Shown here: one piece after another, positions 13,971-63,730 of the stretch
Numbering within the stretch: the stretch's first letter is position 1
How the letters are laid out: the number at the start of each line of letters is the position of its first letter
From: Amphiscolops sp. MND2022
Taxonomy: Eukaryota
Assembly: GCA_964187785.1 (NCBI GenBank)
Contig: OZ076409.1
Location: 40,240,001 to 40,304,000 of the forward strand
Direction: 5' to 3'
Length of the DNA: 64,000 bases
Position numbers and translations under genes: made by a program
Notes under the pieces: model-generated
Seen by the model: the letters and a program-made list of their open reading frames with translations, nothing else
Told to the model about the DNA's origin: nothing
The model's database searches: none

Positions 13971-14335
13971 GTCCCGCTCCTTTGAAGATGAACAGGGCTG
14001 CCTCGAACCCATCAATGAATGCTCTCGATCTAACTCCGTGATCTCTGACGGTTTCATCATCGTAGGCAGTTGAACCTAAATAAACCCCCCGTGTCTCGAG
14101 GGGCACCTGGACGTATGTTTTCCCACAGTGATCGCAGCAGCTACATTCGGCGTCACAGTGGGGAACAGCCGAAAGTCCCGTCTCGGTAAACTGGAAAAGT
14201 GGGCTCTTGGAACCTGCCAGGAACCCCTCTTGGGGGTAGTTGAATTATTGGAGGGATGTTCCCGGCAGTGGGATTGTTGGGTGCTCCTCCAAACGTCGGC
14301 ATGACGTGTACACTTGCAGTTTCCACGTTTTGCAC
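13926..14335 (-). pseudogene. E4 small CxxC ORF ('ORF-X') overlapping LTR start; frameshift near 14160, stop at the conserved SQ position
   Basis: CDHCGKTYVQV..RSRAFIDGFEAALFIFKGAGLS*LSSCAG aligns without gaps to E2 ORF-X (16/64 identities by eye). 5' boundary uncertain. Confidence 0.7.
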
Positions 14336-15223: not shown

Positions 15224-17166
15224 TGTCGCAGGCTGCCGCCTGTGACGGTACTAAAATCACGACGACAGCAGAAGAGCAGGAAATAGCGACCGGTACCCTA
15301 CCAATCTATTAGAGAGGTAAACATTCAAAACTCAAACTTTTATGTTTATCTGTTAGGTTTATAAGTTGAATTTGTTAATGTTGCTAATTTCTCATTTGAT
15401 ATATACTTTTGCCAGTATTAGTCTGTTGAGGCCAACGATCAAAAGGCTCAGATGATCCGTTGATGTTTGTGAGATTCAGAAGTGCAATACAATAAGGTAA
15501 TTGAAGCAATTAGAAACACGGCTAGATAGCGTAAAGGAAACAAGTTCAAGTGAACGAAACTCCAATTCCGGGGACGTCACTTGAGCTCATCTCGCTAGCC
15601 AATCACATTCATTCATTCCTGCAGTGCTATTGCTGTATTTATTAGTTGGCCGGTTAAGGCCGCATGACGGAACTCCGCTTTCATTACTCGGTGCTTTAGT
15701 CAAACGGCCGGTTCCGGCCGCAAAGCAATAATGGAAGATGTATGTACTTTGTTAATGATAGTATAGTTGTGCTTTTATACTGGTTAAACGCTCATTTTAG
15801 TAATTTGGCGCTTTGTTCTAATATTTGGCCGAAGAAGGCCGTTTGCCTGATCATTATCTCTTGTTGCTAGAACCAACCAGACAGTGGCCGGTTAAGGCTT
15901 CTTTTCAAATAAATTATTCGGATGCTATATCTAACCAATTCGCGTACTCTAAATGTCATGTATGGTTGTGATTGCGATGTAAACACTCATGTAACTCCCT
16001 AAATTATTTAGTGCAATCAATATTAGACTATGTTGTTGCTACAAACGCCGGTCTGAAAGACCTATCTGGTTATGCCCACCAGTTAACATGTACAATCTGT
16101 GGCCATATCAGATAAAGTTTAACATGTGCAATAACATGTAATACTGTTGCTCACTAGCCAATTCTGTCTGCTAACGGGGCACGTGCCGACACGGGATTGT
16201 TAGCATTCCCCGAATATTAGCGGCTTGAGTAATTTAATTGATGATAATTGATGCACTGCGTGCCTTTCAAATGTTTACTACTGTTGTCGAAACAAGAATT
16301 TGAATGGCCGCGTGAATTTCCTGATCACATTTCAGCGGCACTTTGATGTTCATATAGCTGTGTAAATCAGGTGCTTCCGGAATGTAGTCATCACATTTTT
16401 TAAGTGTTTGTACTATGTATGTCACGCCCGAGGCAGTATATATAGGAGCTACTCCCTTGGGTGAACACAATTTTGTTCTGCTCCTTAAAATCAGTTTGTA
16501 AAATAACCTTCTGTTACAAACCTCCAAACAAGATACTATTTCCAGGTGTTAAATAATTTATTATTTGACCAGGTTTGTCTCAATGCCTACAACTAGAAAA
16601 CAAGAAAGCGAGAAAGTCCAGAGGACTTGAAATGTTGTCAGATATCAAGAATTTAGATATTATGTTAGGTGAGAATCACTTTAATGCAAGGGAGAGAGAA
16701 AGTAGTTTAAATAGCAATTTGCCCAGGAGATCTAGAAGCTTTGCGAGCAATGAATCCGAAAATGAAGATGGGGACATAGGTAGAAATCAGAGAAATGTTA
16801 ACTCTAGAACAAATGCCGAATGTGACCGAAATTCAGTTACAGGCAACTCTAGTGCTGAGATAAACAGGTTGTCAAGTGGAATAAATTCTCGTATTTCACG
16901 AAAAATGGACGAAATGATGAATTCTGTGAGTGTCCAGATACAAAGGGCCATAAGTGATGCGATAAGTACCCAGGTGCTTCCACAAATCCAAAATGTTATT
17001 ATGGCCAGATCAGGACACGGGACCAGAAAGGGATGAGACGTTCCGTCTGAGAGACCGGAACTAAATTCCGAAGTTCAGCGAAATCTAAACCCAAAGAACA
17101 ACTTGAGAAATGAACAGAATGAGAACCAGTTAAACAATGATTACCCTGATCTGAATGTTCATGACA
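15224..17166 (+). repeat. E2 5' LTR (1943 bp)
   Basis: Matches 29669-31536. TATATATA at 16437-16444; gag ATG at 16583. Confidence 0.95.
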
Positions 17167-18292
17167 TGGTGACAGGAGACAACGAATCTCCAAATCAGGT
17201 TCCTGAGTTTCTCACAGGACGTATCCCATCAAGAAGTCATCTCAGTCAGTCCTCTGAGGACATCAACCTTGACACGACGATCCCAGCGCATGAGAGAATC
17301 GGTACAGCTGCAGATCCTGATCCCATTACCAGATTGGTCGACGTCTTGACTACAATGCAGAATAGACCAACGGCTCAACAACTCACAATACGCCCAGTCA
17401 ACTCTAAACACTATGACTTTCGATGGCAAGAGTGAGAAATTTGAGCTGTTCGAAGATCTTTTCCACACTATGATCCAGATGCAGCCAGAAATGACCGAGC
17501 AGATGAAAATTAACCATTTTCATTCACTATTGAGGAAATATGCTCTCCAGACGTTCAGAAACATCAATTCGACAAATCGCCAAACCCTCGAAGACGTACT
17601 AGTCTTTTCCCGACGAAATACGTCAAACCTGAATCACAGGCAACCGCCAAACATAAATGGCACTGTCTGGTCTTTGATCCCAATACGATGAAACTGCCTG
17701 ATTTCCTTGAAGAATTAAATCAAGGCACAGGGAAGGCGTTCGGAGAACACGCACAGAAAATGATTGACAGACTCCTGTACGCAAAATTGCCACCAAAACT
17801 GAAAAGGTCAGTCAATATGGCCAGACTAGAAAACGGCTCATACGATGAAATAGTTGCTCATTTGGAGAGAGAATTTGAGCTTAACGCCCTCGAGGAGTCA
17901 GACGATCTACCTATGGCAGCAATGACTTCCTCATCTGCTAAGCCCAAAACTCCCCTGTCCACTGGGCAAATGTCGGACATCACTTGCAATTACTGCAAGG
18001 AAAAGGGCCACATGGTCAAGAACTGCGAAAAATTGAAAAAGAAAAAGAGAAAGATGCCCAACAAGGCAAATTGACTCAGAAGAAAACATACCCGGAGTGT
18101 GGCACTTGTGGCAAAAAGAACCACCCGGAGGAAAGATGTTGGCAAGGTGCCGGTGCGCATCTTAAACCCAAACGCACTAGGCCCGAGGACTCAAATGACA
18201 ATAAGCCTAATTCAAAGGCTCAGAAACCTCAGACCAAAACGACATCATCAAGCTCCCAATCCTCATCTTCCAATGATGAGTCAAAAAACTAA
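16583..18292 (+). pseudogene. gag: E2 gag, starting inside the 5' LTR; several frameshifts and stops
   Basis: MPTTRKQ start (a 2-bp deletion relative to the 3' LTR copy). MVTG at the PBS, TFDGKSEKFELFEDLF, CNYCKEKGHMVKNC and CGTCGKKNHPEERC; ends ESKN*. Confidence 0.9.
17167..17178 (+). promoter_or_regulatory. E2 primer binding site TGGTGACAGGAG
   Basis: Follows the 5' LTR only; the 3' LTR is followed by the TSD. Confidence 0.9.
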
Positions 18293-21200
18293 CTTCGCCA
18301 CGACTTCAATACAACGAACTAATATCCGTCCGACAATACATCAGATCGGACCCTCCAACGCAAACCTTTCATCAAAACAATCAGCATTTGATGGGCTATC
18401 CCTATGTTGTCTGGCAGCAACAGATGGAAAAAGCCACCATCATTACCTACAATAACACCCATTTGTTCCAGAACCAATTCCTGTTTGGGATCCTGATTAT
18501 ACAACTACCTTTACAACCCTGTTCAGGCCCATTCCCCTGATCGATGATTACAATCCAACATACATCCTCCCAGACTATGACAGAGTTCCTTATTGGGACA
18601 CCGAGATTTATAACCAGGATCTATTGCAAATCCAGTATTTTCTAGACGACATTGAACACTACAACAAAACAGTCCACGAGAACCCCCCCAATTACCCACA
18701 ACAAGAAAACACGGGCACTAATCAAAAATTAGCAAATGAACGATGGTACAAACCACCCAGTGTTCCCAAACCCCCTGGGGACCGAGAATCCTGAAAATAC
18801 TGCTGAATCCATACCACAATCACTATTAGACGAGAAACAATTCCAGAATGTGCTCATAACCAAAGATGGTGAACCAGGCTGTATACCCCTGTCAACTAAC
18901 ACTAATCTCAAATGCAAGAAACGCATGCTTTATTTCCCAATGGACTTTAGGGAATTGACCATTGATGGACTTAAGACACCGGGGCTCTCTCCAGTGCAAT
19001 TCCTGAAATGGACTTCCGGAAAATCCGCCTTCTATCTCCACAATCTGTCATCCGGGAAGGTCCGCCTCCGAACTTCCAAATCATGGTCACTAATGGGCAA
19101 CTGGAAACTCCCAAGAGTAGCATAGAGCTCAAATTCGAAGTTTGTGACATTGAGTTCAATGAAATCTTCATAGTGATGGAACATTTGACAGGACCGATCA
19201 TTGGACTAATGTTCCTTCAGAGAAATCATACAGTTCTAGACATGAGACAAGGAATCCTGAATTTCCCGTTCTTTTCAATGCAGCTCAAAACAGCTGATCA
19301 CAAATACTCAAACGTGCTAGAACCAATTCTCAACCCTACTGAGATAACCATTCCGCCAAATGATAGAGTCCTAATTAGGACCAATTCCTTACTCTACCCT
19401 GAGAATGCTGTCACGGGGATACTGCAACCGAGCGACCTTCTCCATGATGAAGGCGACATCACATTTTGCCCAGCTTTGGTCACTCTGAATGACGGCAATA
19501 TATTGATACCAGTCAATAACTTCACAGACCACCCTTACAAACTCAAAAAGAGACTTCATATTGCCAATTTCTTTGTCATGACGACAGAACAAATGAAGTA
19601 CGTCAAACCGGTCGATCCGGCATCAACCTGGTACCTCTTGCAAAATGACCAAGAGCAGGCAGCCCATTATGTCAGCAGCCTCATCAAAACGAATAGAAAT
19701 CCTCAAAATTCCAAAAAATACTGGTTCCCAACTCCAGAAAACCCTGGAAACCCCGAGGAACACACGCCCGTCCAGAAAAGAATTCTACGTGAACTACAGG
19801 CCTTACAGGACCTGGAGACACTCGACCCCACCAAAGATGAAGAATATCGTGCAAAGATCCTAGAAAACTTTGAATGAAAAGATTCCACTCTCACTCCTGA
19901 AGAAAAGGAAAAAATTGAGGAATTGCTAGTGGAATTCCATGATATATTTGCACGACACAGATTTGACATAGGCATGAACGAGGAATTCAAGGTGAAATTG
20001 ACACCTAAGGACGATTCCCCAGCCTCTAGCCAGAGCCTCCCAGCTCTACTACCCTGAAGGAGGACATTCTAGTCGAATTAGCCATGTTACACAAATATGG
20101 CATAATCACCACTCTTCCGTTCTCGAAATATGCGAGTCCAATATTCGCACAAATGAAACCCAATGGAAAACTCAGACTCTTGGTTGACTTGAGGAAAATC
20201 AACAACCTCATATCCGATGATTACATAAACAATAATCACCCCGTCAGTACTTTAGTCGACGCCGCCCAACACTTAGCGGGCAAAAAACTGTTCTGTAAAT
20301 TAGACTGCTCACAAGCATACCACTGCCTGTCGATGGCTGACCAACGATCGATTGAAATGTTGGCCTTTAACTTCGCCAGTCGCACATTTGCATACAGACG
20401 TTTGGCACAAGGCCTTAGCAGAGCTCTGTCCGCGTTTTCGAGCTTTATGAGAGAATACCTCGACGAAGTCATTAAAGCGGATCAATGCGTCCTGTATGTG
20501 GACGATATCGGCATCGCAGCCAACGATGCTGACCACCTCATAGCTAACCTGAGAGCAACGTTCAAATGCATTCAGGAAGCTGGCCTTAAGTTGACAATGC
20601 ACAAATATCACTTTGGTGCAAAAGAAATTGATTTTCTCGGACGAACTATTACTCCACAAGGCGTCAAACCCCAGAAACAGAACGTACAGAACTTCCTGGA
20701 AAAGACCAAATTCCTGAAGTCGAAAAAGGCTTTACAACGCTATTTGAGATTCCCAAACTACTACAAGAATTATGTCCCAAGACTTTCAAAACGCCTTGCT
20801 CCATTCTACAAGATGCTGAAAAGTGACGAAATTTTCCTTGTATCGAAGGATTTAGTCCAACAATTTGAAGAAATCAATAAAGCACTAGACAAATGCTGCG
20901 ATTTGGCACTACAACAACCTATCCCGAACGAGCAAATTGCACTAATGACTGATGCAAGTTTTGGTGCAGCTGGATACGCGGTCCTAATTGAAGACGACCC
21001 AAGCCAGAAATTTACGTCAACCAGAAAGTCCTATGCCCCTGTTGCATACGGATCAAAAACCTTCACCCCAGCACAGATCAAAATGTCAATTTATGCCAAA
21101 GAATTCCTTGCAATTTATTTTGCATTCAAAGAATTTGGACATTTCTTCTGGGTGCGCCGAAACCGGTCTTTATCCTAACTGACAACAAAGCTGTAACACG

Positions 21201-23485
21201 ATTTTGCCAAACGAAAATACAACCCCCAGCCCTGTGGAACGCGTGTGACTACGTGATTCAGTTCAATTTTGTCATAGGGCACATCCCAGGAGCACAAATA
21301 ACAGCTACCGACTATTTGTCCCGTTTGGAAGCAGACCCGAAGGACAAACTAGTCATGAAGATCCGTGAAGACGCACAAACGCTACCAATCGAAATAAACG
21401 TCTAATCAGCAGGGGTGTCACAGGAAGAACAAATCTTCTACACTAATGACGACGATGAGACAGAGGAACAATACTGGACAAGGAAAGAAGCAATCAGGAA
21501 AAATCCAACTATTGATGAGCCCACGGTTACAATACAAACTCTGTCAACAAATCTGGTCATCAACAAACAAGCATCACCCTGACATACAAGTCCGATTAAG
21601 GAAGACGAATCAAATCATTATCGAGCAATCCAAAGATGCTGTACTACATTAATTGAAAGCAAAACTCCTTCACGAAGAATACTCAGAGAACCTACTGCAC
21701 CAGGATGCCCGATACAGACATTATGCAAACAATCTGGAACGAATTGTACTTAAGGACGAAATCCTGACAAGGCAATACTTTGATGAAACAGGGAACGTTA
21801 AAGACCACCAAATTTTGCTTCCGCAGCACTTACTCCAGGAATTGCTTCAGTCTCTTCATGGGACAGCGCACAAACACCCTGGTATCTCAAAAATGTTGCA
21901 GGAAATTCGACAGAGGTATTACTACCCTAGCGTGGCTAAACACGTCAGAAAATGGGTAGAAGGGTTTGAAGAATGTGCAAGGGACAAACGAGTCCCCAAT
22001 GCAACAATTACGTTTGAACTACTCAACTTGCCCGAATGGGACTTTGGACCTGAAGACGCCATGCAAATCGATTTATTGCCGAATCTTCCCCCAAGTGGAG
22101 GCTACGAAAACGTCCTAACAGCAATTGATGTGTTCTTCAGATATTTGTTCGTCTATCCCCTTACGGACGCGTCGGCGATCAATGTAGCAAAAGCGCTCAT
22201 TGACATTATGACCAAACACGCATATTTACCGACAACACTTATTACTGACAAAGGTTCTGCATTTACTTCTACAATTACTACGGAAATTACGCAAATTTTT
22301 TGGGCATAACACTCAAAGGTGCAGCAACAAAACATCCGCAAGTAATTGGGAAATTAGAGCGGACCCATGCCTCACTAAAAACAAACCTCAAAATGGCTTG
22401 TGGAGAATATCGCCGACAATGGCACAACTACTTGCCATTAGCAGTACTAAATCACAACACTAGTTACCATGCCAGCATCGGTTGTGAGCCGGCGAGAGTA
22501 TTTCAGGAGGAATTCCATATAATATCTTGGATCACAAGCTTAGAAAAAATCCAAATGAGCAGGTCAGCCCAACAACCGAATTTGCTGAAGAAATACAAAA
22601 CCGGACAAAAATCTTGATTGACAAAACAAAGCAAAGTATTATGCAGTCATATATCAAGTACAAAGAATATTATGATCGCGAGGCAAAAGCCGCTCCACTG
22701 AAGGAGAATGATTATTGCTTTGTATTACAGCCGAAAGCGGATCATCAAGGATCAAAAATCCCATTCCATGATTATAGATGGGTCGGACCAACTATAGTCC
22801 AAAAAATTCTACCTAACAAAAATTACATTGTACGACGAATCAATACAAACAAGACTCAAATATTGCATCGGATTCGAACCAACCGCTTGAGGACAATTTC
22901 CGAGAACAGCGGTTACAGCCTGATGAAGAGATTGTCATTCCGCAAGATGACTTATATATCATAACGTGGGAAACAGACTTTGGCGAGCAGCTAATTACAC
23001 GAGGACACGATCCTATTCCGACTAGCCTACCGAATGGCGAACAGCCGAATGCGGCAGAACTGATTCATAGTGACTTAGACGAGAATGAAGCGGATTACAT
23101 AATCACGACAGACGAAACAAATTACGCTGACCACGCGGCGCACAGCCGAAATGAAAGATTAAATGATGACGTCACCAAAAGAAATGCAGCTAGTGAAGCG
23201 ACTAGAAATGAAGAATCTGATTGGCCGAATCCGGCCGTTTTCCCAAAAAGTCAAGAAAAATCTTTGCCGAATTCGGATGAAGGACAAAAAAACTATGAAA
23301 GTTTTTCACAAAGAAACCCGATGAAAGAAAATGATGCACAAAATTCTCCAAAAAGGGGGGATGATATTATCGTGCCCGAAATATCGGAAGACGATACCAG
23401 AAATGAACGTCTGAGCCCTAGAGGAGGGAAATATAATCTCAGACCTAACCCCAACCCAAACTACATAGAAGATTTTAGATACTAA
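18283..23485 (+). pseudogene. pol: E2 pol: PR, dUTPase-like spacer, RT, RNase H, integrase
   Basis: IIGLMFL protease end; LYVDDIGI; LMTDAS; H..HKHPG integrase zinc region; MQIDL, ITDKGSAF and LERTH as the DDE triad; WVGP (GPY/F). Gypsy domain order. Many stops and frameshifts. Confidence 0.95.
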
Positions 23486-23719
23486 AGAATTGAATTCTTC
23501 CCGAAAATGGGAGTTCTTTTCTTTTATCTCTTTCATCTTTTCAGCCCCTCAAGAATTTTTTGCAAAAAATAATAGGGCTTTCCAAAGGATCCCTTGTGAA
23601 AAAGAATAAATATGGGATCAAGGAATCAAAAGAAACGTAATGAGAATACAAATCCGGCAACAAAACAGAAAATAAACGAAGTTTACAGTTTGTAAGTACA
23701 TAAAGACATATGTACAAAA

Positions 23720-26700
23720 TCAGGACTTAGTGGAGGAATCTTTACTGGGACTTCCAGCAACAGAAGAAGTGGACGACCTCGAACCGCTCCTACCCCTCTT
23801 TCGCTTTTTGCTGCTAGGGAACCTCACAGCAGATTGGTCACCCACAGTACTACTTCCTTCCAGATCACCTTGCGCTGAGGCCCTTTTCGGAGCTGAATCG
23901 GCTTTACGATGGGTGGCTAAGAAGGACTTATATATTTTTGACCGACCAAAAATGTCTGTGTAAGTCCAAGGGTCGTACTCTGGGGAGAAGGCAGCGCGTC
24001 CAAAAGACGCAGCGAGGGCAGAAAATTTGGCAAGGCTGGAATCTTCACTGCTTCGAATGACGGAACCAGCAACATTGGCCATGTAACTCTGACAAGGTAA
24101 AACCAGGTCAGTGAATCGGTTTTGCCCTCCAGCAGCGGTGACATCTCCAAAGACGACAACGGTTGTACACAAACAGCTCAAATTAAAGAGGTGCAAAAGG
24201 TGAGAACGCTCGTGGAGAAACTCGAGCCCCATCAGGAACTCGATCAGATCGGCTGCCACGCTAGTGATGTCAAAGCTGGAACCGTAGGCAGTCCGGAGGT
24301 GGTCTAGTAGCTGAATGTATTGGTCTCGACACAGAGACCTGTTCGAATCATCGACCCAGGATCGAAGCGCAAAGGTATTGTAAAGCACGTCAAAGTGCCG
24401 CAAAGCCACATCTATCGGCCTCTTTAGCATAATGAAGGGATCAAAGGCTGCTAGTCCCTTCACGAGATTGGTGCTGAGCCCAGTCCTCTGGAGAATTCCA
24501 TTAATCAGGAACTGAATGTATTGCTGGCTGTCCTTGACGAAGTCAGCTTTCACTGTCTCAGCAGTAGCTAGGATGGCGGCCCGTTCAGTCTTCTGGCTGA
24601 AATGGAAACCCCCGGCCCTTGCCTTGCACGCAGTTGACACCTTGTTGGTCATCTTGAGCCGGATCAGGTACTCATCCCCAGGTAGGAAAGTGCCCTCGCT
24701 TGTCTGGAAACGGAGGAGGAGAAACCAGGCATTAGCTACAGGGGCAGTGTCTGGGGTTTAGATGCGAGAGCAGAGCAGGCTGAGGAAATGGCTGACCTCC
24801 CTGCATAGGTAGAAGGACGAATCACGACAAAACTGCAGGCTCACTGAGAAACTGGTCACGACTGAAAACAAAACTAATGTCCAGTTCAGGACAACTTACC
24901 CTCACCGGTTTTATAACAAACTATACTTACAATCACTGACAATTTTACTGAAGAACTCCAGCTTGACGATGCAGAATTCGTCCCATATCAGTGACCATTC
25001 AAAGCTTTGCACCTGGAACAAACCAACATCAATCCAATAATTGAAAATGGACCTTAGATCAGCCAAGTGAAGAAGGACGACTTGAATTCCTATGGGTTAA
25101 AGTGGAAAATGAGGAAAATCTAATCCTCCCTCTAGATCCTGAACCTTCTTGCAGAGGTGCATGGGTAGTGAGGTACCAAACCACAGACTTCCATTCGACG
25201 ATGAGTTCCCGACAGAGGATGGGTAGAGTTGTCACATCGAGTTTACAACTGGTTATAGCCTGGAAATAGCAAACGGATCCAATTATACACGTTGGACAAA
25301 TGAAACATTCCCTACCTAGGCCCTATCCCTCCAGTGGAAATTCTGTGAAGAAACTACTTACTTTAGTGAGTTCTGGACTACGAATTACCCAGTCTTCCAT
25401 GAGGGATCCGCCCAAAGAGACCATCAGAGCTTGAAGGACGGAGAAGAAAGCGATCTTTCTGAAGACACTGTTGCTGGTCTTGCGCATGAGTCGTGACAGG
25501 GAGAAGTGCTCGAAACGTAAGCAACTCTGAACCCCCTGGTTGTAATACTCTGACTCGTCAATGGCTCTGGGTAGGTCTGGGTGACATCCGGAACAGGCAA
25601 CTATTCCGGGTTTGGTGGACACGGCAGAGAGGATCCGGGAAAGGGACCCCAGTTCCCCGGTCACGTCAGTAGTGGTTCGAGAGCTTCGGCAAATGAACAC
25701 TCTACAAAGCTCGGAGCCTTTCCAGAACTTGACAGACATATGCTTGTAGACTCCAACTGTCTCAAACTCAAGGGAAAAGCACTGTTGGGAGTTGACTTGC
25801 TCTGCTATGTCGTCAAGGCAGCAGATGAAGAAGTGCTGGAAGATTGCCTAGGGACAAAACCCTTTTTAAAACCTTAGCTGGAACCGGCAATAAAGAACTA
25901 AAACAAACTGTACTAACCGACAATCTCTCTTCCCCCCAATTAAAGTCATTGAAGGTGGCTTGGTGATTGGTGAACGACCCCACCCGGGACCACAGATTGC
26001 GCAAGACCATCATATCATTCCTTGAGTCTTAATGAAGTCTCCGACCAGACAGAGTTGGGTCCTGATGCGGGCTTCTGGAGTGACTAGGGCAGTTGTGAAC
26101 CCTTTGACGAAATCCTCGTAGAAAGGGAATCGTTTTCCTATGTCCACAAGTTCAACGTTCTTGAATTTGGGCAATTCCTTAGCCAGTTCAACTTGGTCAG
26201 AAGCTTCCCATTGCCGCCACGGACCCGGTGCTGCGTCTTCCCAGTAATTGGGCCGGTACTTCGCAAGTGTTCGTAGCGCCAGCGCTGGTCTCGTCGAAAA
26301 TGACGCTCTGTCCGGTGGTGTCAGAGTATCTCGTAGGGGCCTTTGGACTTGATGGAAAATTTTTTCTTACAGATATGACACCAAACCATATGAGGGTTAT
26401 GGAGCGGGTCAGCTGGTCCAGAAATGAAAGATCTCGTCCATCCGATTTTAGAGAAGAATTCCTTTCGCATGGGGACACCTCGTTTAGAAAGATTCTTGTT
26501 GCCTTTCTTCTTCCTGGACTTGGACGAGCTGGCAGTGGTTGCACACAGGGCTTGATCTCTGACCTCAAGCAGTGTGGCATCTTGACTACTGTACTCTGGC
26601 GCGTCAGTCTCTGTGTCTTCTTTGACGTCCTGGCTCGACGATTGAGGCACTGGGGCATCTTGGACATTAGTAGTCATCTTGGAAGATTGGGTTATTAAAT

Positions 26701-27911
26701 CCATTTCGGTGGCACTATCAGTCTCCCCATAATACGAGGAATCACCGGTTTCTCCAGAACTGGATACCTCCGTGTTTTCGCCCCTTAGCGTAGCTTCTCC
26801 TTCAGTGTCACTTCAACTGGAATCTTCTGCACTACCGGGACCTGGGGTTTGTGCGCGCCTGCCTGAGTAGAAGTGCCCAGTTCTGGATGGAGCAACAGTC
26901 GGTTTACCTCGGACTGCATCAATGACCATGCGTTCCATAGTCGAAAAGGACCTTCCGAGGGTCTCATCAGTGAGGACTCCAAGAAGGTGGAACACCTGCG
27001 GCTCAGTGAAGGTGACGGTGGTTTGTCCTACTGGAAATCGAGTAGAGGGAGGTTCGTCGAAATACTCCTTGAGGATCGCTCGACTTCTTCCGGAAAGGTG
27101 CGGAGGCTCTTTCTGGATTGTGCCTTGTCCGGGCGTCTGCCCACTGGTGCCGGGAACCAGAAGCTTAGGTTCGGTCTCGTCTCCCCATTCAGTTTCAGAG
27201 GCGTGAGAAAAGGGATGACAACCATCTAGGGCTACTGGAACGATCACGCTGGACTGATCAGTTGCACCTTCGTCTCCACTGGGGTCAGTCAGATATCGGA
27301 CCTTGAATTCTCCGCCAGGGAGAGGGGGAGCGTCGCCAACAGAGGATGCTACTTCAGTGTCCTGTTGTGCGGGTGAAATGCCACCCGTGTTGTTGCCTGG
27401 AAGGTCAACAGTCCACAAGTTCAGCCAATTGAGAATCCGACGTCTCTACCACTCGGAGGGCAGACTCTAGAGCAGACTGATCAATATTTGGGGTTTCTCC
27501 TTCATTGACTGAGAGTGGCGTGCTTGCTCTTCTGGTCCCTGCAGTAGGCGAGGCAGGAGGATCTCCTTGAGTACTTGGGACAATATCCTGAGCTGGCTCT
27601 ATTTGCCCTGCTCCTCCCTGTGGTTGGTCGGGCACTTGTGCTCCTTCTAGCTTGCGTACCATGTTTTCCGCGTATGCAGTTACATCTGGGTCACTATCAG
27701 CACTGTGTGTAGAGGTGACGTCATCTGCTCGACTGCGTGGCGTTTCTTGGGATGGAGTCGGGTATTGGACTTGCCTACCCTGCTCAGTTGGGGGATTGAC
27801 TGTTGGAACATTGATAGGAGGGTCGGCTGGTGTGCTGGCAACTTCGGTTGACTGATTCTCTAAACGAAAAGAGATAAAGTTTGACGGTATGCTTCCTCGA
27901 AAAGAATCCAT
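23720..27911 (-). pseudogene. E2 antisense multi-exon accessory gene: disordered N-terminus, C2H2/BED-like finger, hAT-transposase-like body
   Basis: VWCHICKKKFSIKSKGPYEIL(R)HHRTERH finger. GT-AG introns at 25848-25917, 25260-25361 and 24862-24930; removing them gives near-gapless alignment to the E3 antisense protein. True start uncertain. Confidence 0.8.
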
Positions 27912-28968
27912 ATTACCGCGTTAGAAATCTTCCGGAAGTGTTTCAGATTTGAACAAAATGTGTTGTCACGAACCTATTAGTGGAAACAGGAAGCGCTGTA
28001 TGAAAGAAGTCTAGCCTTGATCAAGCTAAACTAGTTCAATATGTGAAAACTGAACCAACTTGTAATTGAAGACATGTTTCTCCAGTACTGTTAACCCAAC
28101 TCGAAGAGTCTCGTACTAGCTGGCCGGAATCGTGGAGTTGTGCCAATCTCGTTAGAAGAAGAGGGGAACCAGGGATTCTCCGAAACGAGGAGTTGTTAAG
28201 CGCAAGAGAGATGGTGACGTAAATAGACTGGTGCCAATTGAAAGGATATGGATGGGAAGACAAAAAGAAAATAACCAGAATCGAATCGGAATTAAAAGTA
28301 GATAAGAGAATTGGAATGTTGGAGTTCGTGGCTGAAGAGATTACCAGACTAATACTATATAATTACTTACATATTTAAAATTGTGCATGGAGTCTGCCAG
28401 CGAAATGTACAGAAGATCTTCGTTGTTTACAGTTTACTTAGTTAGTGGCCGATTATGGCCGTTTGCCTTACTTTGATTTGCCATTTTGTTCCGTTGCCCT
28501 AGTTACCCTTAGTTAAAAAATTTGTCATTTTGAATCATTTTAGTTAATTTTTTCGCCATTCTATTTATTCATTTTTCATTCTATCAATGGGAGTGTCTGA
28601 TTGGCTGAAGCCATTTTGAGAAAGTTTTGCGACGCATGCCGTTAATTACCTTCGAGCTGACGTTAATTACCCACTTGAAACGGGTGAAGTTAATTTTTAC
28701 AACTCAAGCGTCGTTCACACCTCTCATAGTGATGGTATTGATGAGCGGTAAACACTGAATTATCAAAGGATGCCGACTAATTATGAAATTCCGTTCAGGA
28801 ATGTTTATGCCGGATTAGGACGATTTACCGAAGACTCAACCGCCAAAACGAATTGCCGGGGAAAAGCCCGACTTGGCCAAATTCTCGAGTTGGTGAATTC
28901 ATTCCACCTTGAAATCTTGATCAAGCCAGTCGACTTTCCTACTTAACGAAATTGCTAAAAAACTGATA

Positions 28969-29757
28969 ATGCAAAGATACAACTTGACTAAAAAGCTCTT
29001 CGACTTTGAAGAAGAAGAATCAGAAAGCTCAACTAACTCAGTGATCTACATATCTAGCAATAGTGAAAATGAAGCTTCAAGCTCCTGGGATTCAGACTGG
29101 TCCACAGATACGGAGGCCATAATAGACAGGATCGAGCGAGAGGTTAAGGCAGTCACAACCCCTATTGCGGGGCGCGGGATGACGACGGAAGACTCAAACG
29201 ACGAAATGGTAGCGGGGCCCAGCAATGCTCAGCCTGTTCCGCCCTCTACCCCCATGCTGGGATTCGAATACTTCAACAGAGAGATGTGCCTAGCGCCGTC
29301 TAAGAAACAGAAGAAATCGAGAGTCGAGCTTTGTACTACAGTGCTACCTGTCTTGGAATCTCCACTGTCTCCTCCTGATCACGAGAGAAGACCCAGTATT
29401 GACACCCCTCTTGTACAGCCGGCCTCAGGGACCTTCTACGCTTCATACCATGTGCAGAATATCAAGCCATACCAAAATATCAGTGAGAGTCTACACACAG
29501 GCTGTATGGTATGTGGTAAATCAAGGGATCAGATAAAAGAAGAAAAGATCAACTGGTATATGGAGAGATCGACGCCCAAAAGTGAACTCGCCTACATCAC
29601 CGCATTACGACGAGAAGCCTACTCTATTGGTTTGAACGCAGGTAGTTTACTTTTCCTAACATCCGCAGTGTCGCAGGCTGCCGCCTGTGACGGTACTAAA
29701 ATCACGACGACATCAGAAGGGCAGGAACTAGCGACCGGTACCCTACCAATCTATTAG
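28969..29757 (+). CDS. E2 ORF-X, 262 aa, acidic N-terminus plus CxxC domain, ends 89 nt inside the 3' LTR
   Basis: Uninterrupted ORF with SSWDSDW and GCMVCGK. Homologous segment in E4. The C-terminal SQAAACDG is also encoded at the start of E5. Confidence 0.8.
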   Translation: MQRYNLTKKLFDFEEEESESSTNSVIYISSNSENEASSSWDSDWSTDTEAIIDRIEREVKAVTTPIAGRGMTTEDSNDEMVAGPSNAQPVPPSTPMLGFEYFNREMCLAPSKKQKKSRVELCTTVLPVLESPLSPPDHERRPSIDTPLVQPASGTFYASYHVQNIKPYQNISESLHTGCMVCGKSRDQIKEEKINWYMERSTPKSELAYITALRREAYSIGLNAGSLLFLTSAVSQAAACDGTKITTTSEGQELATGTLPIY

Positions 29758-31536
29758 AGAGGTAAACATTCAAACCTCAAACTTTTATCTTATTCTGTTA
29801 GGTTTATGAGTTGAATTTGTTAATGTTGCTAAATTTTCATTTAATATATACTTTTGCCAGTATTAGTCTGATAAGGCCAACAATCAAAAGGCTCAGATGA
29901 TCTGAATAAGGCCATTTGCCTGATCATTATCCCTTGTTGCTAGAGCCAACCGGACAGTGGCCGGTTAAGGCTTCTTTTCAAATCAAAAGCTCAGAACGAG
30001 TTCAAGTGAACGAAACTCCAATTCCGGGACGTCACTTGAGCTCATCTCGCTAGCCAATCACATTCATTCATTCCTGCAGTACTATTGCTGTTTTTATTAA
30101 TTGGCCGGTTAAGGCTGCATGACGGAACTCCGCTTTCATTACTCGGTGCTTTGGTCAAACGGCCGGTTCCGGCCGCAAAGCAATAATGGAAGATGCATAG
30201 CTTAATATCATTGTACTTTGTTAATGATAGTATAGTTGTGCTTTTCTGGTTAAACGCTCATTTTAGTAATTTGGCGCTTTGTTCTAATATTTGGCCGATT
30301 AAGGCCATTTCGTACTCTAAATGTCATGTATGGTTGTGATTGCGATGTAAACACTCATGTAACTCCCTAAATTAATTAGTGCAATCAATATTAGACTATG
30401 TTGTTGCTACAAACACCGGTCTGAAAGACCTATCCGGTTATGCCCACCAGTTAACATGTACAATCTGTGGCCATATCAGATAAAGATTAACATGTGCAAT
30501 AACATGTAATACTGTTGCTTACTAGCCAATTCTGTCTGCTAACGGGGCACGTGCCGACACGGGATTGTTAGCATTCCCCGAATATTAGCGGCTTGAGTAA
30601 TTTATTTGATGATAATTGATGCACTGCGTGCCTTTCAAATGTTTACTAGTGTCGTCGAAACAAGAATTTGAATGGCCGCGTGATTTTCCTGATCACATTT
30701 CAGCGGCACTTTGATGCTCATATAGCTGTGTAAATCAGGTGCTTCCGGAATGTAGTCATTACACTTTTTAAGTATTTGTACTATGTATGTCACGCCCGAG
30801 GCAGTATATATAAGAGCTACTCCCTTGGGTAGACACAATTTTGTTCTGCTCCTTAAAATCAGTATGTAAATTAACCTTCTGTTACAAACCTCCAAACAAG
30901 ATACTATTTCCTGGTGTTAAATAATTAATTATCTGACCAGGTTTGTTTCAATGCCTACAACTAGAAAACAGAAGAAAGCGAGAAAGTCAAAAGGACTTGA
31001 AATGTTGTCAGATATCAAGAATTTAGATATTATGTTAGGTGAGAATCACTTTAATGCAAGGGAGAGAGAAAGTAGTTTAAATAGCAATTTGCCCAGGAGA
31101 TCTAGAAGCTTTGCGAGCAATGAATCCGAAAATGAAGATGGAGACATAGGTAGAAATCAGAGAAATGTTAACTCTAGAACAAATTCCGAATGTGACCGAA
31201 ATTCAGTTACAGGCAACTCTAGTGCTGAGATAAACAGGTTGTCAAGTGAATTAAATTCTCGTATTTCACGAGAAATGGACGAGATGATGAATTCTGTGAC
31301 TGTCCAGATACAAAGGGCCATAAGTGATGCGATAAGTACTCAGGTGCTTCCTTAAATCCAAAATGATATTATGGCCGGATCAGGACACGGGACCAGAAAG
31401 GGATGGGACGTTCCGTCTGAGAGGCCGGAACTAAATTCCGAAGTTCAGTGAAATCTAAACGCAAAGAACAACTTGAGAAATGAACAGGATGAGAACCAGT
31501 TAAACAATGATTACCCTGATCTGAATGTTCGTGACA
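29669..31536 (+). repeat. E2 3' LTR (1868 bp) with second copy of gag N-terminus (30951-31536)
   Basis: Direct repeat of 15224-17166 with substitutions and one internal block rearrangement. Confidence 0.95.
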
Positions 31537-31785
31537 TTTGCCGTAGCTTCTCACGCAGTTGCGGTGAATGTGGCGTTTTACAAAACACACATGGAGCTAA
31601 AATAATACGGAATTCGGAAGAAAGAAATGTAGTTGTAAAAAAGAAAGAAAGGAAGTAAGAAAAGTTGATTTGATTGGAATCATAACATAAATACCGAAAC
31701 ACATTTAAAATTAAACAGAAGAAACCAATCTGGACAGGAAAAGATCCTATTGCCTCATCAAGATCCTGCCTTGAACAACCAATTT

Positions 31786-34326: not shown

Positions 34327-35892
34327 TGTCGCAGGCGGCCGCGTGCGACGGAAACTGGTGCTCGATTTCATATAATCACTATAACACTCTCACTGGCACG
34401 ATCCCCCTAGACTGAAGAAAAAGGACTTGAAGTCTAAAAGAACAAAGATGGAACTGATGAACCTATCTTGTACCTAGCTGTAATATTTTGTAATTGTTGC
34501 TAAATTCGAAATTAATAATCGGACTTGTAGTTCAATTAGCGTTCCTTTAGTTTATGTCGATGAAATTGAATTAATATGTTGTTACTTTAATATACTCATA
34601 TACGTTAACGGTGATGCATTATTAGTAAATAGACACCAAGGCGTACAGATAAAGGAAACGTGTACAAAGGTTTCTTTGCATGTCGCTTTGGACAGCTAGT
34701 CCCGTTGAATTTAGACCAATCATATACAAGTATTCAATAACTTGCTGCGCTGTGAGTGCTTCTATTTGAAGGCCGTACTTGGCAGTCCACCTAATTAAAA
34801 TGGCCAACAACGGGTTTGAGACATCCATTTCAAATTGAAAGTGCTATATTGCTGAAATGAACGCTTAAACAAGGCCCGTATGGCTCGTTGGAAGTTGCAG
34901 TTTATAGTAGTAAATACATGAATTTGTTGCCTGAAGTACATGAAAAGGGAGAAATTGTCCTTCCCCCTTCTTTCATAAATATTCATGCAGGATACATGTA
35001 TTCAAAATGCATTCCCCTACAATGTTTGATGTCATGTCGGCGAGGACCTCAAGGCCATACAAACATTTTGCTTTGTCATATAATCTATATTTAAATATAA
35101 CGTCATGATGCTGTTTATAGAAACGTATTCAGATTACTGTTACTTTTTTTAGACCTTTTTTCTAAAAATAGCTAATGACTTACTGGTTAATGCAAGTCAT
35201 GGAAATTTAACTATAAATACCCAGGACACCTAGTCCCGAGGAGAAGAGAATATACCGGTGCACTGGATTACGGTTAATAACACAAATTACAATTTGGAAG
35301 CTGAAGATAATTATTTCTCTTCTCTTGTGAACAACCTCTTAGAGAACCTTCCACTAGAAGACAAAAAGCAAAAACTAGAAAGTCAAGGGAGATGGACATG
35401 ATGTCCGACTTTGAAAATATGGACGTTATGATAGGGAATGGAGAGTCTAACACTATTGAAAGGGAATTAGCAAGCGCAATTGAGGAATCATTAATACTTG
35501 TGGACGTAGAGTCTAATATGTTTCCAAGAAATGAATTCAGAGAGACTAGTGATGAAAATAATGTTCCTGGGCAAAATGAGCCCAGAGACTAAATGGAAAT
35601 TTTCTCAAATGAGTTTAACCTAAGGCTATCTCAAGAAATGGATTCCATGATGACCATGATGCATTCGCAATTTAACAGAGCCATAAGCTCATCCGTTTCC
35701 GATAGAGTTATCTCCGAAATAAAAAATATCATGGGTTCGATGTTTTCGTCAGGAATTAGGGACACTGAGGCCAGTTCGTCTCCAAATAGCCAGGAGAATA
35801 GGGAAAACAATCCTGGATTGAAAACTAAAATTACGAGAAAGGACTCTCTTCCGTCGTTGATCTGAGAGACACGGAGGTCTTGGGTCCTTAAA
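34327..35892 (+). mobile_element. E5: solo LTR (1566 bp) related to E2
   Basis: Starts TGTCGCAGGCGGCCGCGTGCGACGG (SQAAACDG). TSD ATGAC at 34322-34326 and 35893-35897. TATAAATA at 35212. Decayed gag N-terminus PSTRRQKAKTRKSREMDMMSDFENMDVMIG (35344-35865). Terminal ACA appears mutated to AAA. Confidence 0.88.
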
Positions 35893-41827: not shown

Positions 41828-43162
41828 CCCAGTGACACGAATCTTGGCACGCTTGCCAAGATGCATGGGTATGCTTGCCAAGATCTTGGCAAGATCTTGC
41901 CAAGATCTTACCAAGGCTACCATGATCATGCAAGATCATGGCAAGGCTGACCATGCGTCTTACCAAGCGTACCAAGATTTTCCATGTATCTTACCAAGCT
42001 TTTCCATGTGTCTTGCCAAGCATACCAAGATTTTTCTATCCATCTTGCCAATCCAACCAGGATTTTTTCATGTATTTTGCAAAGCATTCCAAGATTTTCG
42101 TTGTAACTTGCAAAGCTTAATACGTTCTACGTGTGTTTTTGAGCCATTTGAGATTTTATATTGAATATTTTCGAAAACTGGAATAACCAAAATTTAATTG
42201 TTTCAATTTTCAAATATTATAACAGTAAGTATTGTAGTTGCAGCACCAAAGAAAATTGGAAAATCATGCGAAAGTTTGACAAATGGAGTTTGTTTCTTCC
42301 ACGGACAGCAACACAATTTGCAAAACTTCGAAAGCTGGAGATATATTATCCATTAAACAAAGAATGAGTTCTGATGGCAGTATTCTTGATCTGAGCAGTT
42401 CAAGCACTACAGGGGACGATGCTGAAGTTGTCGCATGTACCTGGAAACATTTCAAAACATGAATTGTGAAGAACTACATAAAAAAATGCGATACTCGAAA
42501 AGAGTAGTTGTTGATCTGGAAAAAGCTTGAATGTTCCGCTCTAGCGTTGCGAAGTACATTTTTCTCAAGTTAGGAACACATTTTCCAAATTTTCTACGAA
42601 GTGGAGAAGCAAATCATTCGAAATGAAAAGAAAGCAAAAGAGAACAATGAAAAACTTGCAAACGAAAAAAATCGAACTAGTCAAAGGTTTCAAAGACTCA
42701 TTTTTAGCACTGCCAGGCCTACGGGTTCCATTGGGCAGGAACACAATTTACAAAAAAAACATCTTCAAAAACAGGAGAGAAACTTACCATCCAACAAATA
42801 ATGAGTACTGCTGAAAGGCGCTGAGATCCGGGAATTCCAATCACCACAGGCGACGAGGCTGCATAAGTTGTTCCGTCTCCCTGGTCATGTAATGACAATT
42901 AGATTGGGTTAAACAAGTTTTTTTCAGTTTTTCTGAAGAAGAGATCTTCATATCATTTGCTTGCCAAGATCTTGATAAGATCTTGCCATGATCTTGGCAA
43001 GCATTTCCACATGGAACGCTTGTCAAGATCTTGCCAAGATCTTGCCAAGATCTTACCAAGCGTAGCATGCATCATGTTTTTCCATGCGTCTTGGTAAGCC
43101 TACCATGCGTTTCCATGTTTTTCCAAGATCTTGGCAAGGCTACCAAGATTCGTGTCACTGGG
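41828..43162. mobile_element. 1335-bp non-autonomous TIR DNA transposon
   Basis: Perfect 20-bp TIR CCCAGTGACACGAATCTTGG, flanked by TA on both sides. ~250-bp subterminal arrays of (C)CAAGATCTTG at each end. No intact transposase. Confidence 0.9.
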
Positions 43163-57294: not shown

Positions 57295-57514
57295 AATCAA
57301 TTGTCTGAAAATAACAAACCATGATAAAATAAAAAGAAGATGTGGCGTAAAGCAAGGAAATTTCTACTATCAAAAGTTATCTACTATATAAGGAGAGTTG
57401 TTCAGTCTGCCAGCTGAACAATTCATGGAGTTGACACAAATCGTGTGAACAAATTTTCCAAGCGAAGCAAATCAGTTGTAGTAAAAATTGACTGACGCTT
57501 AGTTTACTACTACA

Positions 57515-58099: not shown

Positions 58100-60676
58100 A
58101 TTGGGAAAAGAACAAAGAAGAGGAAATAGACAGCTGACAAACAATCAGAAACAAAGGAGTTAAACAATATAAATTTGAAGTTAAATAAATAAATATATGC
58201 ATATTAGTATTATTAACACAATAATGTACACTTATATAAATACGTACTTACGGAATAACGGAACTATTCGTGCAGTTAATAATAATACAATACTATGTAA
58301 TAATAATAATCGAATTGCACCGCTCAGTGAACGAACTGAGATATTAAAGGCGGAACTGAGGCCTGGCAGCCGGCCTCCAATACTCGCACTAAAGCGGCGG
58401 CCTGGCAGGCATCCTGAGAATTGTAAACTCAGCAAACTAATATGCAAGTGCGCGCTATAGTGAATACATGTAAATGAACTAATGTCTAGTGCAGTGATTT
58501 ATTAACAATACGAGTGCAAATATACCAACAATTGAGATTTCTGTGCTAACTTAGTAGAACATCACGTACCGCGGCCTGGGATGCGGCCTGAGAATTACAT
58601 ACGATAAATCAATCACGAAAGTGAAAGATGATGATGCTACCGTGTAACTTTGTCTCGAAATGAATCTAGAGATTATTATCTATGATCTTAAACTATACCG
58701 TCGTTTAAAATATCGCATATAACGTTCTTTTACATGTAAATATTGATTAATCTATCAACAGACCTGAACCGCAGCCTGGACCAAAGATTTAGTACCGAAT
58801 ATCAAACCAAGTGTTAATAACATGTATATCCTGTTCCCTGAATCCGTTGTCGTTTAATTGCATTAAATACCTTTCTGAACAATGTATCTGATGCTGTTTA
58901 TAATTAATAATTGCTTTACTCATTGAACAAGTTTGTCCGTTCCAGACTATGGCCTGGGACCAGGCTTCGTGATCTTAACCAAAAATCAGAGCCGTAAATA
59001 CTGTAGAAGCAATTCTACTCTTTCATTTGAAACCTAATGTGTGATTTGTGTTAAATTTCATTCAAATTGTTGCTGATTTATTTAATTTAGGGAAATATTT
59101 GTAAAGGAAAATTGGTTGTCATCATTTTTTCCCAAATTTGTGCAGTTAATCAATCTTATTCAATGACTCATTGCGCGTGTCTTTGATAATTTTTTCAGTT
59201 CGGCGTCCTGAATAGGCGGGAAGTTGGAGGCGAAGGGAAGCGGATTTGCAACTCAGGCCGGAAGTGGACGCTCGGGCAGCACTTCGGGCCAGTAACACAC
59301 ACTGCGCCGCGGACATCATCATTGGTGAACCAGGAGGAACTGCATCCAGACCAGCTGACAACAAACAAGTAAGTTTCACAACACCATATTTGACGCTAAA
59401 CCGCACCATGAGCAAAAAAAGTACACAACACGAAGAGGGCATAAAGAGAGGAATGGAAATGAAAATTCAACGTACCATTTTCCCAGTCATTATACACAAC
59501 TGAGGCCTCCACCCCAACAGTGACTTGTCCGTGCTGAGTCCTGCCACGCTTGGACGACACACCGGGTTGCTCCGAGACAGCATCACTGACAGGGGCAGGA
59601 GTATCACCCGCCACCTCACACACAAATACATCACTGTCCTCGGAAGACTCAATTCCCGGCCCAGGCACTGCTCCAGCAACTATAATACAACCAAAGTATG
59701 AACAACAGGAAATGTAGAACAAGTGTCCCTAAAAGCAATACACGAACCCATTTCATTGACTTGACACCTCTAGAAAGAGAAAGAGAAAGAATACCTACTT
59801 TCAAGAGTCTGAGAAGCAGAAATCATGGGGGGCACATGGTCATCTCCCGAACTGTCATGAACAGAGGGCGGCCTGGTAATCGAACCAGAAATGACATCCG
59901 CCAACCGAACCCGTTTCGCAGACTGCACACTGGTAGTTGACAACATTCGACTGGCCCTTGTCTTCTTCTTCCCTTGGGACCTCGTACTACGGATCGGGGC
60001 ATAATCCTCATCAGATCCATCATCGGTAGCTACAGAAAGTAGATGAATAGAACGCGTTCAAAAACCTAGAAAAGGCTGGCCACCATTTAATTTCTAGAAA
60101 AGATTACCTTTCTTCCGTGCCAAGTAATCAATGTCATGCCGATCATCACTTGTGGCAGAATGGAAAGACCCAGTTGCAATAACACTCTCATGCTCTCCAC
60201 TACTGTCATCACTGGAATTTGCTCTGTCACCAAAGCCTGGCACATGTCCCTCTGCTTGCTCAACAGACACACCAGCTTCCTCCTGAACGCCTCCTCCACT
60301 CGCCTCTTCATTTTCAACATCACCCCCACATCCACTAGTTTTTTCCTCTCCACGGACAACCGACTCAACCACAGACTCAACTTCTGCTCCACTCTCAACC
60401 AACTCTGCTTCTCGACTGCGGTGCAACAATGCACTATCTTCTTCAGTAGAACACATAATCAATTGTCTGAAAATAACAAACCATGATAAAATAAAAAGAA
60501 GATGTGGCGTAAAGCAAGGAAATTTCTACTATCAAAAGTTATCCACTATATAAGGAGAGTTGTTCAGTCTGCCAGCTGAACAATTCATGGAGATGACACA
60601 AACCGTGTGAACAAATTTTCCAAGCGAAGCAAATCAGTTGTAGTAAAAAATGACTGACGCTTAGTTTACTACTACA

Positions 60677-61261
60677 ATGAATCATCCAAATTCAAACAGC
60701 AAATTGGACGAAGACGTCTTCATTCTCGAACGAGATCAACACCAGCAGCCCGAACAAAGAGCCGGTACACCGCCACCAGATTATAACCTAATTACCACGC
60801 GGCAAATTAACATTACTTACGAAATCATTAAAACACAGGACTACCACGTAGTCCTAGTACATGAAGAAACGCCGGACGATACTACGAGCACAGAAAGCGA
60901 GACGGGAGTCATCAGACGTTTCACGCAAGACAACCCGGTGATCCCCGAAGACACATTTGTGAGCCCGGTCAGGCAATTCGACCGTGAAATTTACGATGAT
61001 CCCGACAACAACGTTGATAGCCCAATAAGTTTCTACAGTAGCTCAGAAGGCTACTATTCGGGCAGCGATTGGGAGACAGACTCATCTTGGCGATCCGACA
61101 ATTCCTTAACTGACGATCTCCCAACGCTATTTGAGACCCCGATTCGATCAATTTCCCAATTTCTCCTTCCCGAGGGAACTGGGTACAGAAGCCGAGGACT
61201 GTCACAGCCCCGCCTGAGCTGCGAGCACTGCAACAAACACAACCCAGTCTTCGAAGAATAA
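60677..61261 (+). CDS. E3 ORF-X copy 2, 194 aa, acidic, ends 62 nt inside LTR3 with CEHCNKH
   Basis: Intact ORF at the same position as in E2/E4. The LTR start TG TCA CAG is read as L-S-Q in the same phase. SGSDWETDSSW resembles E2 SSWDSDWSTD. Confidence 0.72.
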   Translation: MNHPNSNSKLDEDVFILERDQHQQPEQRAGTPPPDYNLITTRQINITYEIIKTQDYHVVLVHEETPDDTTSTESETGVIRRFTQDNPVIPEDTFVSPVRQFDREIYDDPDNNVDSPISFYSSSEGYYSGSDWETDSSWRSDNSLTDDLPTLFETPIRSISQFLLPEGTGYRSRGLSQPRLSCEHCNKHNPVFEE

Positions 61262-63591: not shown

Positions 63592-63730
63592 TATGATTTC
63601 AGGTTGTCCATACTCTGGACCATTTATGATTTCAGGCTGTCCATATTCTGGACCATATATGGTTCCATACTGGACCATAAAAGTTTATGGTTTCAGGCTG
63701 ACCATACTCTGGACCATATATGATTCCAGG
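63592..63730. repeat. Degenerate ~32-bp minisatellite (TATGATTTCAGG(C/T)TGTCCATACTCTGGACCAT)
   Basis: About four imperfect units, each with an internal GTCCA..TGGAC inverted motif. Confidence 0.8.

Follow-up and report, generated by a model that had tools for sequence, protein, structure and literature searches.

The question raised by this locus is whether an open reading frame that runs from the internal region of a retrotransposon into its 3′ LTR is a gene and, if so, what its product might do. The frame, designated ORF-X, comprises 262 amino acids (28969..29757, forward strand) and lies in E2, one of a cluster of LTR retrotransposons (E1 to E5) present in the window, that is, the whole stretch of 64,000 nucleotides that was analysed. 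Sequence comparisons indicate that ORF-X is a real gene of E2, conserved as a protein in a family, and that the copy present in E2 is drifting.

Organization of element E2

E2 is a full-length Gypsy element (15224-31536, forward strand) with a pair of LTRs ending in TG...CA and flanked on both sides by the 5-bp target site duplication TTTGC. The 5′ LTR (1943 bp, 15224..17166, forward strand) repeats the ORF-X tail (15226-15312), and gag begins within it (16583). The U3 of the 3′ LTR (1868 bp, 29669..31536, forward strand) starts with the ORF-X tail, and the distal part of this LTR includes a copy of the gag N-terminus. The gag-pol region (16583..23485, forward strand) encodes a zinc knuckle, a protease region, reverse transcriptase (RT), RNase H and integrase; the Pfam order RVT_1, RT_RNaseH_2, Integrase_H2C2, rve is that of Gypsy elements, and among the matches found the RT resembles the caulimovirus, foamy and Ty3 enzymes. 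The PBS-like sequence TGGTGACAGGAG (17167..17178, forward strand), TGG-initial and common to E1 and E3, is located inside the gag frame. Judged from these sequence features, E2 works as a Ty3/Gypsy element, everything tested agreeing with this class apart from the purine tract. Rfam gave 0 matches over 27800-31600.

The gag frame opens deep within the LTR (about 130-195 codons) and continues over the PBS (16583-17178), and further LTR-borne gag N-termini were observed at 4038-3560 (reverse strand), 35371-35760 and 11511-12266 (reverse strand). Both LTR boundaries are thus coding, and solo LTRs bear gag N-termini; Ty1 has a milder version of a gag start within the LTR. The gag N-termini may resemble those of acoel-worm elements. 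The two LTRs of E2 carry unrelated blocks of about 90-100 bases at an equivalent place (15440-15540 versus 29903-29995), and in their distal 1.2 kb they show 42 differences in 1224 aligned bases.

Head-to-head with ORF-X, E2 has an antisense zinc-finger ORF of about 1400 codons (23720..27911, reverse strand, read from 27911 to 23720), and the two are separated by a spacer of 1.06 kb (27912..28968) that is a candidate internal promoter. E3 also has an antisense ORF (about 53451-56000, reverse strand), placed between pol and the 3′ sense ORF as in E2. The two antisense ORFs have a C2H2/BED-like finger in common (56 aa at 36% identity, E 5e-5); they also match weakly in another block (103 aa at 28%, E 4e-4). 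Neither was assigned in Pfam or PDB, and the Atlas returned nothing for the E3 antisense protein; an origin from a hAT transposase, guessed by eye, was unsupported by the searches. The antisense ORF is possibly of equal interest to ORF-X.

Codon 234 of ORF-X contains the first base of the 3′ LTR (29669), and the final 29 codons plus the stop are LTR sequence, for which reason the tail recurs in the 5′ LTR. The first-pass annotation had noted that ORF-X was intact while gag and pol were disrupted. The frame is indeed open and gag-pol is broken at 15 places at least, with at least 10 breaks in the antisense ORF, but intactness carries no weight: from at least 25 breaks over the 3697 codons of gag-pol and the antisense ORF (a lower bound, in which one break is perhaps the natural gag-pol junction), the probability of 0 breaks in 262 codons is 0.17-0.18. 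Compared with 49 close relatives, E2 ORF-X is altered at 6 of the 113 positions that are strongly conserved (63, 96, 141, 207, 220 and 232). In the tail, which both LTRs of E2 carry, the two versions differ by 3 non-synonymous changes and by no synonymous one. The copy in E2 is an inserted copy in neutral decay. Selection would work during the multiplication of copies, and inserted ones such as E2 would decay afterwards.

Conservation of ORF-X as a protein

Searches with the single sequence showed that 166 of 842 candidates match ORF-X, many of them at full length with 52-87% identity. A full HMMER scan yielded 361 representatives at 50%, many being fragments, and with a wider profile 1246 of 4964 clusters matched, with identities down to about 25% and up to 163 members per cluster. 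The 414 proteins retrieved included 200 of full length, forming 14 groups at 50% identity. No named member was found among those read in five and then ten clusters, none of the longer or fused forms (560-2000 aa) was found, which is weak evidence, and the viral contigs contained no relative DNA. Prokaryote genomes gave two motif matches; neither exceeded 9.3 bits, a score due to the motif by itself, and both were regarded as chance hits.

Alignment A3 was composed of 102 chosen rows: 86 full-length representatives at 90% (one of the 87, P0088, whose C-terminus is aberrant, was left out), 15 distant or partial proteins, and L001, the single metagenome locus with DNA of an ORF-X relative (a 1.3-kb contig, 1-1310). 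Counts given below as fractions of 96 refer to the rows of at least 230 aa, and hence reflect open copies and not every copy. For ORF-X no Pfam family was obtained at E 0.1 and the 102 rows gave weak scattered matches only, while the PDB sequences gave 0 matches to the family profile at E 10. In the family, frames remain open over their full length at 25% identity, and their indels are in frame.

The ORF-X relative of L001 is open and divergent (24-27% identity to E2), keeps the CxxC and the LTR-start DNA, and is devoid of equivalents of C122 and H161 in the alignment. Upstream of the LTR, the same codon is used at 12 of 43 residues shared with E2, and the identities at first, second and third codon positions are 0.35/0.50/0.28 and 0.38/0.57/0.21. 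Third positions saturated with residues kept are the pattern of purifying selection, and here they come from the single pair E2 and L001. The upstream DNA of the two is weakly similar (score 46, against 30±4 for shuffled sequences and 27-36 for window controls); similarity of the E2 spacer to the upstream DNA of E3 and E4 was not significant.

Within the window, a gapless match between E2 and E4 had been noted, and it was reproduced: residues 179-242 align with 13945-14136 (reverse strand), 16 of 64 being identical, with one in-frame stop. By itself this identity is slightly over the window background (next best 13). The family HMM, built as the first-pass annotation had suggested, scored E4 with 28.4 bits, and with 28.3 bits when the profile was made of distant members only; E5 scored 25.5 bits. 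Shuffled windows (20) did not exceed 0.5 bits, and no match was obtained in E3 or E1. The E4 segment is a relic of the C-terminal domain spanning the LTR start of that element at 13970. E5 is a solo LTR (34327..35892, forward strand) with ATGAC on either side and a related ORF-X tail at 34329-34412. By these profile scores the E4 and E5 segments are true relatives of ORF-X and the E3 ORF is not. Genomic context is provided by E2, E4, E5 and the 1.3-kb L001 contig; since the C-terminus is shared, the other homologs can be placed at LTR boundaries as well, by inference.

The positional counterpart in E3 is a stop-to-stop frame of 198 codons (60665..61261, forward strand), acidic and with a CxxC of its own within the LTR. 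It had been described as sharing position and acidic character with ORF-X without the full domain, which was right, but homology to ORF-X is undetectable altogether: the N-terminal profile gave -0.8 bits, under the shuffled 95th percentile of 1.0, and the E3 ORF was rejected as a homolog. The likeness is due either to convergence or to divergence past detection. Like ORF-X, this ORF enters the LTR in the S-Q frame; a second copy lies at about 57503-58100. A tandem duplication of about 3.16 kb (98%) at 56110-62433 affects the 3′ region of E3, with spacer and sense ORF included as well as some of the LTR. The 3′ repeat of E3 extends 82 bases beyond the PBS-like motif (63108-63190), like the 5′ copy, which suggests a tandem or truncated second element. 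Short-period repeat clusters were observed at 41841-43076, with both orientations present, and at 63590-63739; they may be the ends of a non-autonomous DNA element.

The LTR-initial TG-TCN-CAG is read in the S-Q frame in E1, E2, E3 and E5, and in the same frame with a stop in E4, as annotated. The TGTCNCAG end is common to unrelated LTRs, so S-Q comes along with it. The octapeptide SQAAACDG does occur in E5 with 4 of 8 codons different, as had been pointed out, but it does not constitute independent protein evidence. The LTR start of E2 forms a hairpin of 9-10 bp (29669..29692, forward strand) that also encodes SQAAACD, and the motif reads SQAAACD on either strand. E2 and L001 use the same codon at 8 of 9 places in this stretch. 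RNA z values are -3.63 for E2, -1.94 for L001 and -0.55 for E5, and stability exceeds that of about 97% of synonymous resamples for E2 and 92% for E5. The synonymous changes of E5 replace one wobble pair by a Watson-Crick pair and disrupt another, and are consistent with both a hairpin and a protein constraint. Judging from these comparisons, AAACD is under double constraint, as hairpin and as protein. A hairpin at every LTR start was rejected: E3 and E4 were no better than shuffles, and E1 and E5 were not significant.

The codons shared with L001, the stability of the hairpin, the reading of SQAAACD on both strands and the neutral decay of the E2 copy are what would be expected if conservation acted at the nucleotide level, on the LTR end, hairpin and priming signals, with the ORF incidental. 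This explanation accounts for 9 codons only, whereas elsewhere third positions are saturated and residues kept; full-length frames persist at 25% identity and E4 retains the domain without a good hairpin. It is largely refuted and retains a very small probability.

The name given to the boundary in the first-pass annotation implied a polypurine tract, and this was contradicted: purines make up 6 of the 15 bases ahead of the 3′ LTR in E2, and 11 of 15 both in E3 and in E4. At 29649-29668 E2 is without a polypurine tract, though complete and amplified. Plus-strand priming in E2 would use a non-canonical signal, perhaps aided by the adjacent hairpin. Distant rows read G-G-V or R-G-V/L ahead of the LTR, residues whose codons would give a short purine run. 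The bases at the U3 start are in triple use, as integrase end, hairpin and protein, with the canonical purine tract lost in the subfamily.

Features of the protein and its possible role

The N-terminal half of ORF-X is predicted to be disordered and acidic, bearing short motifs, and a helical hairpin is predicted to follow the CxxC. The C-terminal domain (29449..29754, forward strand) includes H161, the CxxC (C179, C182), the hairpin (186-201/208-224), C240 and a hydrophobic tail. Near-invariant positions are S29, S30, C122, P127, the S/T-P-x-S-P block, H161, C179, C182, G183, I189, Y197, E206, A217, G221, G225, 234-242 and P260. The set C122, H161, C179, C182 and C240 is complete in 85/96 rows; C240 falls in the hairpin-constrained stretch, so that its conservation is not independent. 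Zinc would probably be held by C179 and C182 together with two of C122, H161 and C240. In the AlphaFold model the core of the helical hairpin (186-201, 208-224) exceeds a pLDDT of 90 and the rest is low (mean 59.2 for the whole protein and 64.2 for the C-terminal part alone; below 50 in the H161 and C240 regions), and the zinc site therefore comes from conservation and not from geometry. The earlier proposal of a small accessory protein, likely zinc-binding, is supported by the family, with five near-invariant Cys/His, no transmembrane helix and a purifying-selection pattern, but the grounds given for it were weak.

A RING or SUMO-targeted ubiquitin ligase of the ICP0/RNF4 type was rejected, given five conserved Cys/His versus eight ligands and no RING in the Pfam matches of the 102 rows. 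The Spin-doc C2H2 finger (PF18658) was hit by 12/102 rows (best E 0.0052) and the Rad50 zinc hook (PF04423) by 2/102 (best E 0.023), in neither case by the query, and no paired His follows the CxxC in the alignment. In the ESM Atlas the best score for residues 150-262 was 0.81, at chance level; Foldseek gave nothing at E ≤ 0.001 against PDB and BFVD; and the best VIA-align results (Z 4.7, rmsd 2.7, 46 aligned; Z 4.5, rmsd 4.0, 54 aligned) were generic helical hairpins. These null fold and library searches do not show a new fold.

The position between pol and the 3′ LTR is the slot of env, and residues 222-240 are mildly hydrophobic (KD19 1.22), as would suit a remnant of env or a small fusogen that mediates spread between cells. 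That value is the maximum of the query, and KD19 reaches 1.6 in just 3/102 rows, in agreement with the previous statement that no transmembrane helix is visible. The absence of a signal peptide was likewise upheld, by hydropathy only: the N-terminus is acidic and the median best 8-residue hydropathy in the first 30 aa is 1.06. N-glycosylation sequons are at chance (75/96 versus 75.9), and one of the 102 rows has a weak env-family score (E 0.15). With no transmembrane helix or signal-like stretch and chance-level sequons, env is rejected, with a very small probability left to it.

The most telling feature of ORF-X, as read from its sequence, is an N-terminal SIM-like motif (29041..29073, forward strand), in which the core VIYI (residues 25-28) precedes two serines and further acidic/Ser residues. 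SIMs are defined by a hydrophobic core with a CK2-type serine/acidic flank (available text of PMC12751080 and PMC4276917) and are loose motifs (PMC12751080, same portion). The strict pattern (a four-residue core with at least three residues of V/I/L type, SS, then D/E/S) is present in 76/96 rows (shuffled mean 0.31, maximum 2) and a looser one in 80/96 (shuffled mean 0.43). The core has 17 variants among V/I/L, always hydrophobic, while the surroundings diverge, and CK2-type serines with acidic residues adjoin it in 82/96 rows versus 0.4 in shuffled sequences. The 20/96 rows failing the strict pattern include the query, in which N replaces D/E/S at the last position. The subclade P0303, P0404, P0328 and P0413 has an aromatic S-S-Y-F/Y-type core in place of the SIM core; its support of 99 comes from a quick tree of 29 rows used for seeing subclades only. 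Around the motif, pLDDT is below 50 over residues 10-39, low pLDDT being a proxy for disorder. In sequence terms, ORF-X has what characterizes a phospho-SIM and, with its conserved Cys/His, a metal site. Neither the SIM-like motif nor the head-to-head antisense ORF had been pointed out in the first-pass annotation.

The acidic region is followed by a predicted helix at residues 44-61 (29098..29151, forward strand; pLDDT 62-76), a basic NLS-like cluster at residues 112-118 (29302..29322, forward strand) and C122 with the S/T-P-x-S-P motif (29332..29376, forward strand), the last present in 87/96 rows against a shuffled mean of 2.2. The basic cluster is weakly conserved, with a K/R median of 5 in close rows and 4 in distant rows and 0 in one row; 4-of-6 basic residues occur in 24/96 rows versus 11 shuffled. 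LxCxE and PxDLS were each present in 0/96 rows. A ψ-K-x-E site at K190, found in 50/102 rows and lost in distant rows, was rejected.

According to the preferred reading, to which we assign a probability of about 0.4, ORF-X would be an accessory protein of the nucleus that works at SUMO-marked chromatin and keeps the element expressed. ORF-X lies 12 kb downstream on the genomic RNA and needs a subgenomic message or splicing, from which an internal promoter is inferred; reading from such a promoter in the spacer of about 1 kb, head-to-head with the antisense ORF, is fairly likely. The protein would enter the nucleus, and its CK2-type phospho-SIM has about an even chance of binding SUMO. By docking on SUMO-modified chromatin proteins it could relieve silencing of the element; that it counters SUMO-dependent repression of the element, and not another nuclear step, is a tentative proposal. 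Having no RING, it would work by competition or as an adaptor and would not be a ligase. Against this reading are the single SIM, the lack of a RING or known effector domain and the poor conservation of the NLS-like cluster. As background, transposon silencing in fly and mammals depends on SUMO (PMC9406493), SIM-like motifs are used by HSV-1 ICP0 against SUMO-based repression (available sections of PMC3174244), and internal promoters serve the 3′ ORF (env) of the Oikopleura Tor elements (PMC4402516, accessible portion) and gene23 of maize Grande, an extra protein that is nuclear (PMC7264820). A bolder version of the preferred reading is rather unlikely on the present sequence data: an animal Gypsy lineage would have acquired four genes in the manner of a complex retrovirus, with the antisense zinc-finger protein and ORF-X both driven by one bidirectional internal promoter, and ORF-X, as a phospho-SIM/zinc protein, would suppress SUMO-dependent (piRNA/SETDB1-type) silencing.

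An acidic stretch with hydrophobic residues also fits an activation domain. ORF-X could then be a Tas/Tax-like transactivator without any part for SUMO, its acidic aromatic N-terminus activating and its zinc/helical domain binding the LTR, a host factor or the antisense protein. The acidic pI (4.9; family median 4.7) and the conserved aromatic and hydrophobic residues of the acidic region agree with this possibility, as does, by analogy, the 3′ position with LTR overlap and an internal-promoter layout like that of foamy virus tas/bel. However, the order of beta-branched core and SS-acidic residues is kept in 76/96 rows across 25% identity; to our knowledge, activation domains seldom hold such a fixed order at this divergence. 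The sequence is also without an evident basic DNA-binding surface. Regulatory roles have been proposed for the extra ORFs of plant elements (in the text available of PMC7264820 and PMC11963269), and a transactivator is, overall, unlikely.

A Vpr-like particle or integration cofactor, packaged with Gag or paired with the antisense protein and aiding nuclear import or target-site choice, possibly via SUMO, would suit a small, soluble protein with short docking motifs and a helical hairpin incompletely folded alone. ORF-X is kept beside the antisense ORF in E2, and nuclear-import roles of extra ORFs have been discussed (PMC7264820). E3, however, has the antisense ORF and an unrelated ORF in the ORF-X slot, so antisense ORF and ORF-X are no obligate pair, and the cofactor explanation is considered improbable.

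Comparison with known systems

The 3′ accessory genes nef of HIV, sag of MMTV and bel2 of foamy viruses, all from complex retroviruses, overlap the 3′ LTR. As in these genes, the frame of ORF-X crosses the PPT/U3 boundary, and LTR signals and protein are encoded on shared bases; unlike them, ORF-X belongs to a retrotransposon, and its boundary in E2 is without a purine tract; no sequence match was found in Pfam or PDB.

Extra ORFs of LTR elements are already known, common and mostly unexplained (PMC7264820), and it is the protein family of ORF-X that is unnamed in the libraries searched. No description of the family was found among the titles and abstracts listed by searches of open-access literature, and no open-access paper was found that joins an additional ORF of an LTR retrotransposon with a SUMO-interacting motif. 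ORF-X is apparently an undescribed accessory gene family of a four-ORF Gypsy lineage. One acoel genome is reported to be LTR-rich, and extra ORFs are unmentioned in the available part of its description (PMC9911081).

The ORF3 types of bdelloid rotifers encode env, a GDSL esterase or a DEDDy exonuclease (PMC5408684, available sections). Together with Oikopleura Tor, they resemble E2 in being Gypsy-type elements with an additional ORF in the 3′ slot, some with an internal promoter; unlike rotifer ORF3 and the Tor env, ORF-X has no transmembrane helix or detected enzyme motif, and it is a fourth ORF. In plants, the Ty3/Gypsy elements Grande (gene23), RIRE2 and Retand (TRP28) carry extra ORFs downstream of pol and ahead of the 3′ LTR (PMC7264820 and PMC11963269). 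E2 shares with these elements a long pol-to-LTR region, conserved extra ORFs of unexplained function and an antisense ORF. Grande has an own promoter and a nuclear product for its extra ORF, and both are proposed for ORF-X. Unlike the plant elements, E2 has an antisense ORF head-to-head with a non-env ORF in sense orientation, and the latter enters the LTR; the host of E2 is probably an animal.

The N-terminus of ORF-X is like those regions of PML, DAXX, PIAS1 and ICP0 in which a four-residue hydrophobic core is followed by serines and acidic residues of the CK2 type (available text of PMC12751080, PMC4276917 and PMC3174244); unlike the phospho-SIM proteins and ICP0, it has a single motif and no RING, and SUMO binding is predicted. 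ORF-X constitutes a deep, highly amplified family whose motif points to SUMO, a transposon-silencing pathway of animals, and the long-open question of whether animal retrotransposons encode protein suppressors of silencing becomes testable with it. If such a role were true, ORF-X would be a retrotransposon counterpart of the ICP0-type counter-defence of herpesviruses, and would help to explain the very high copy numbers.
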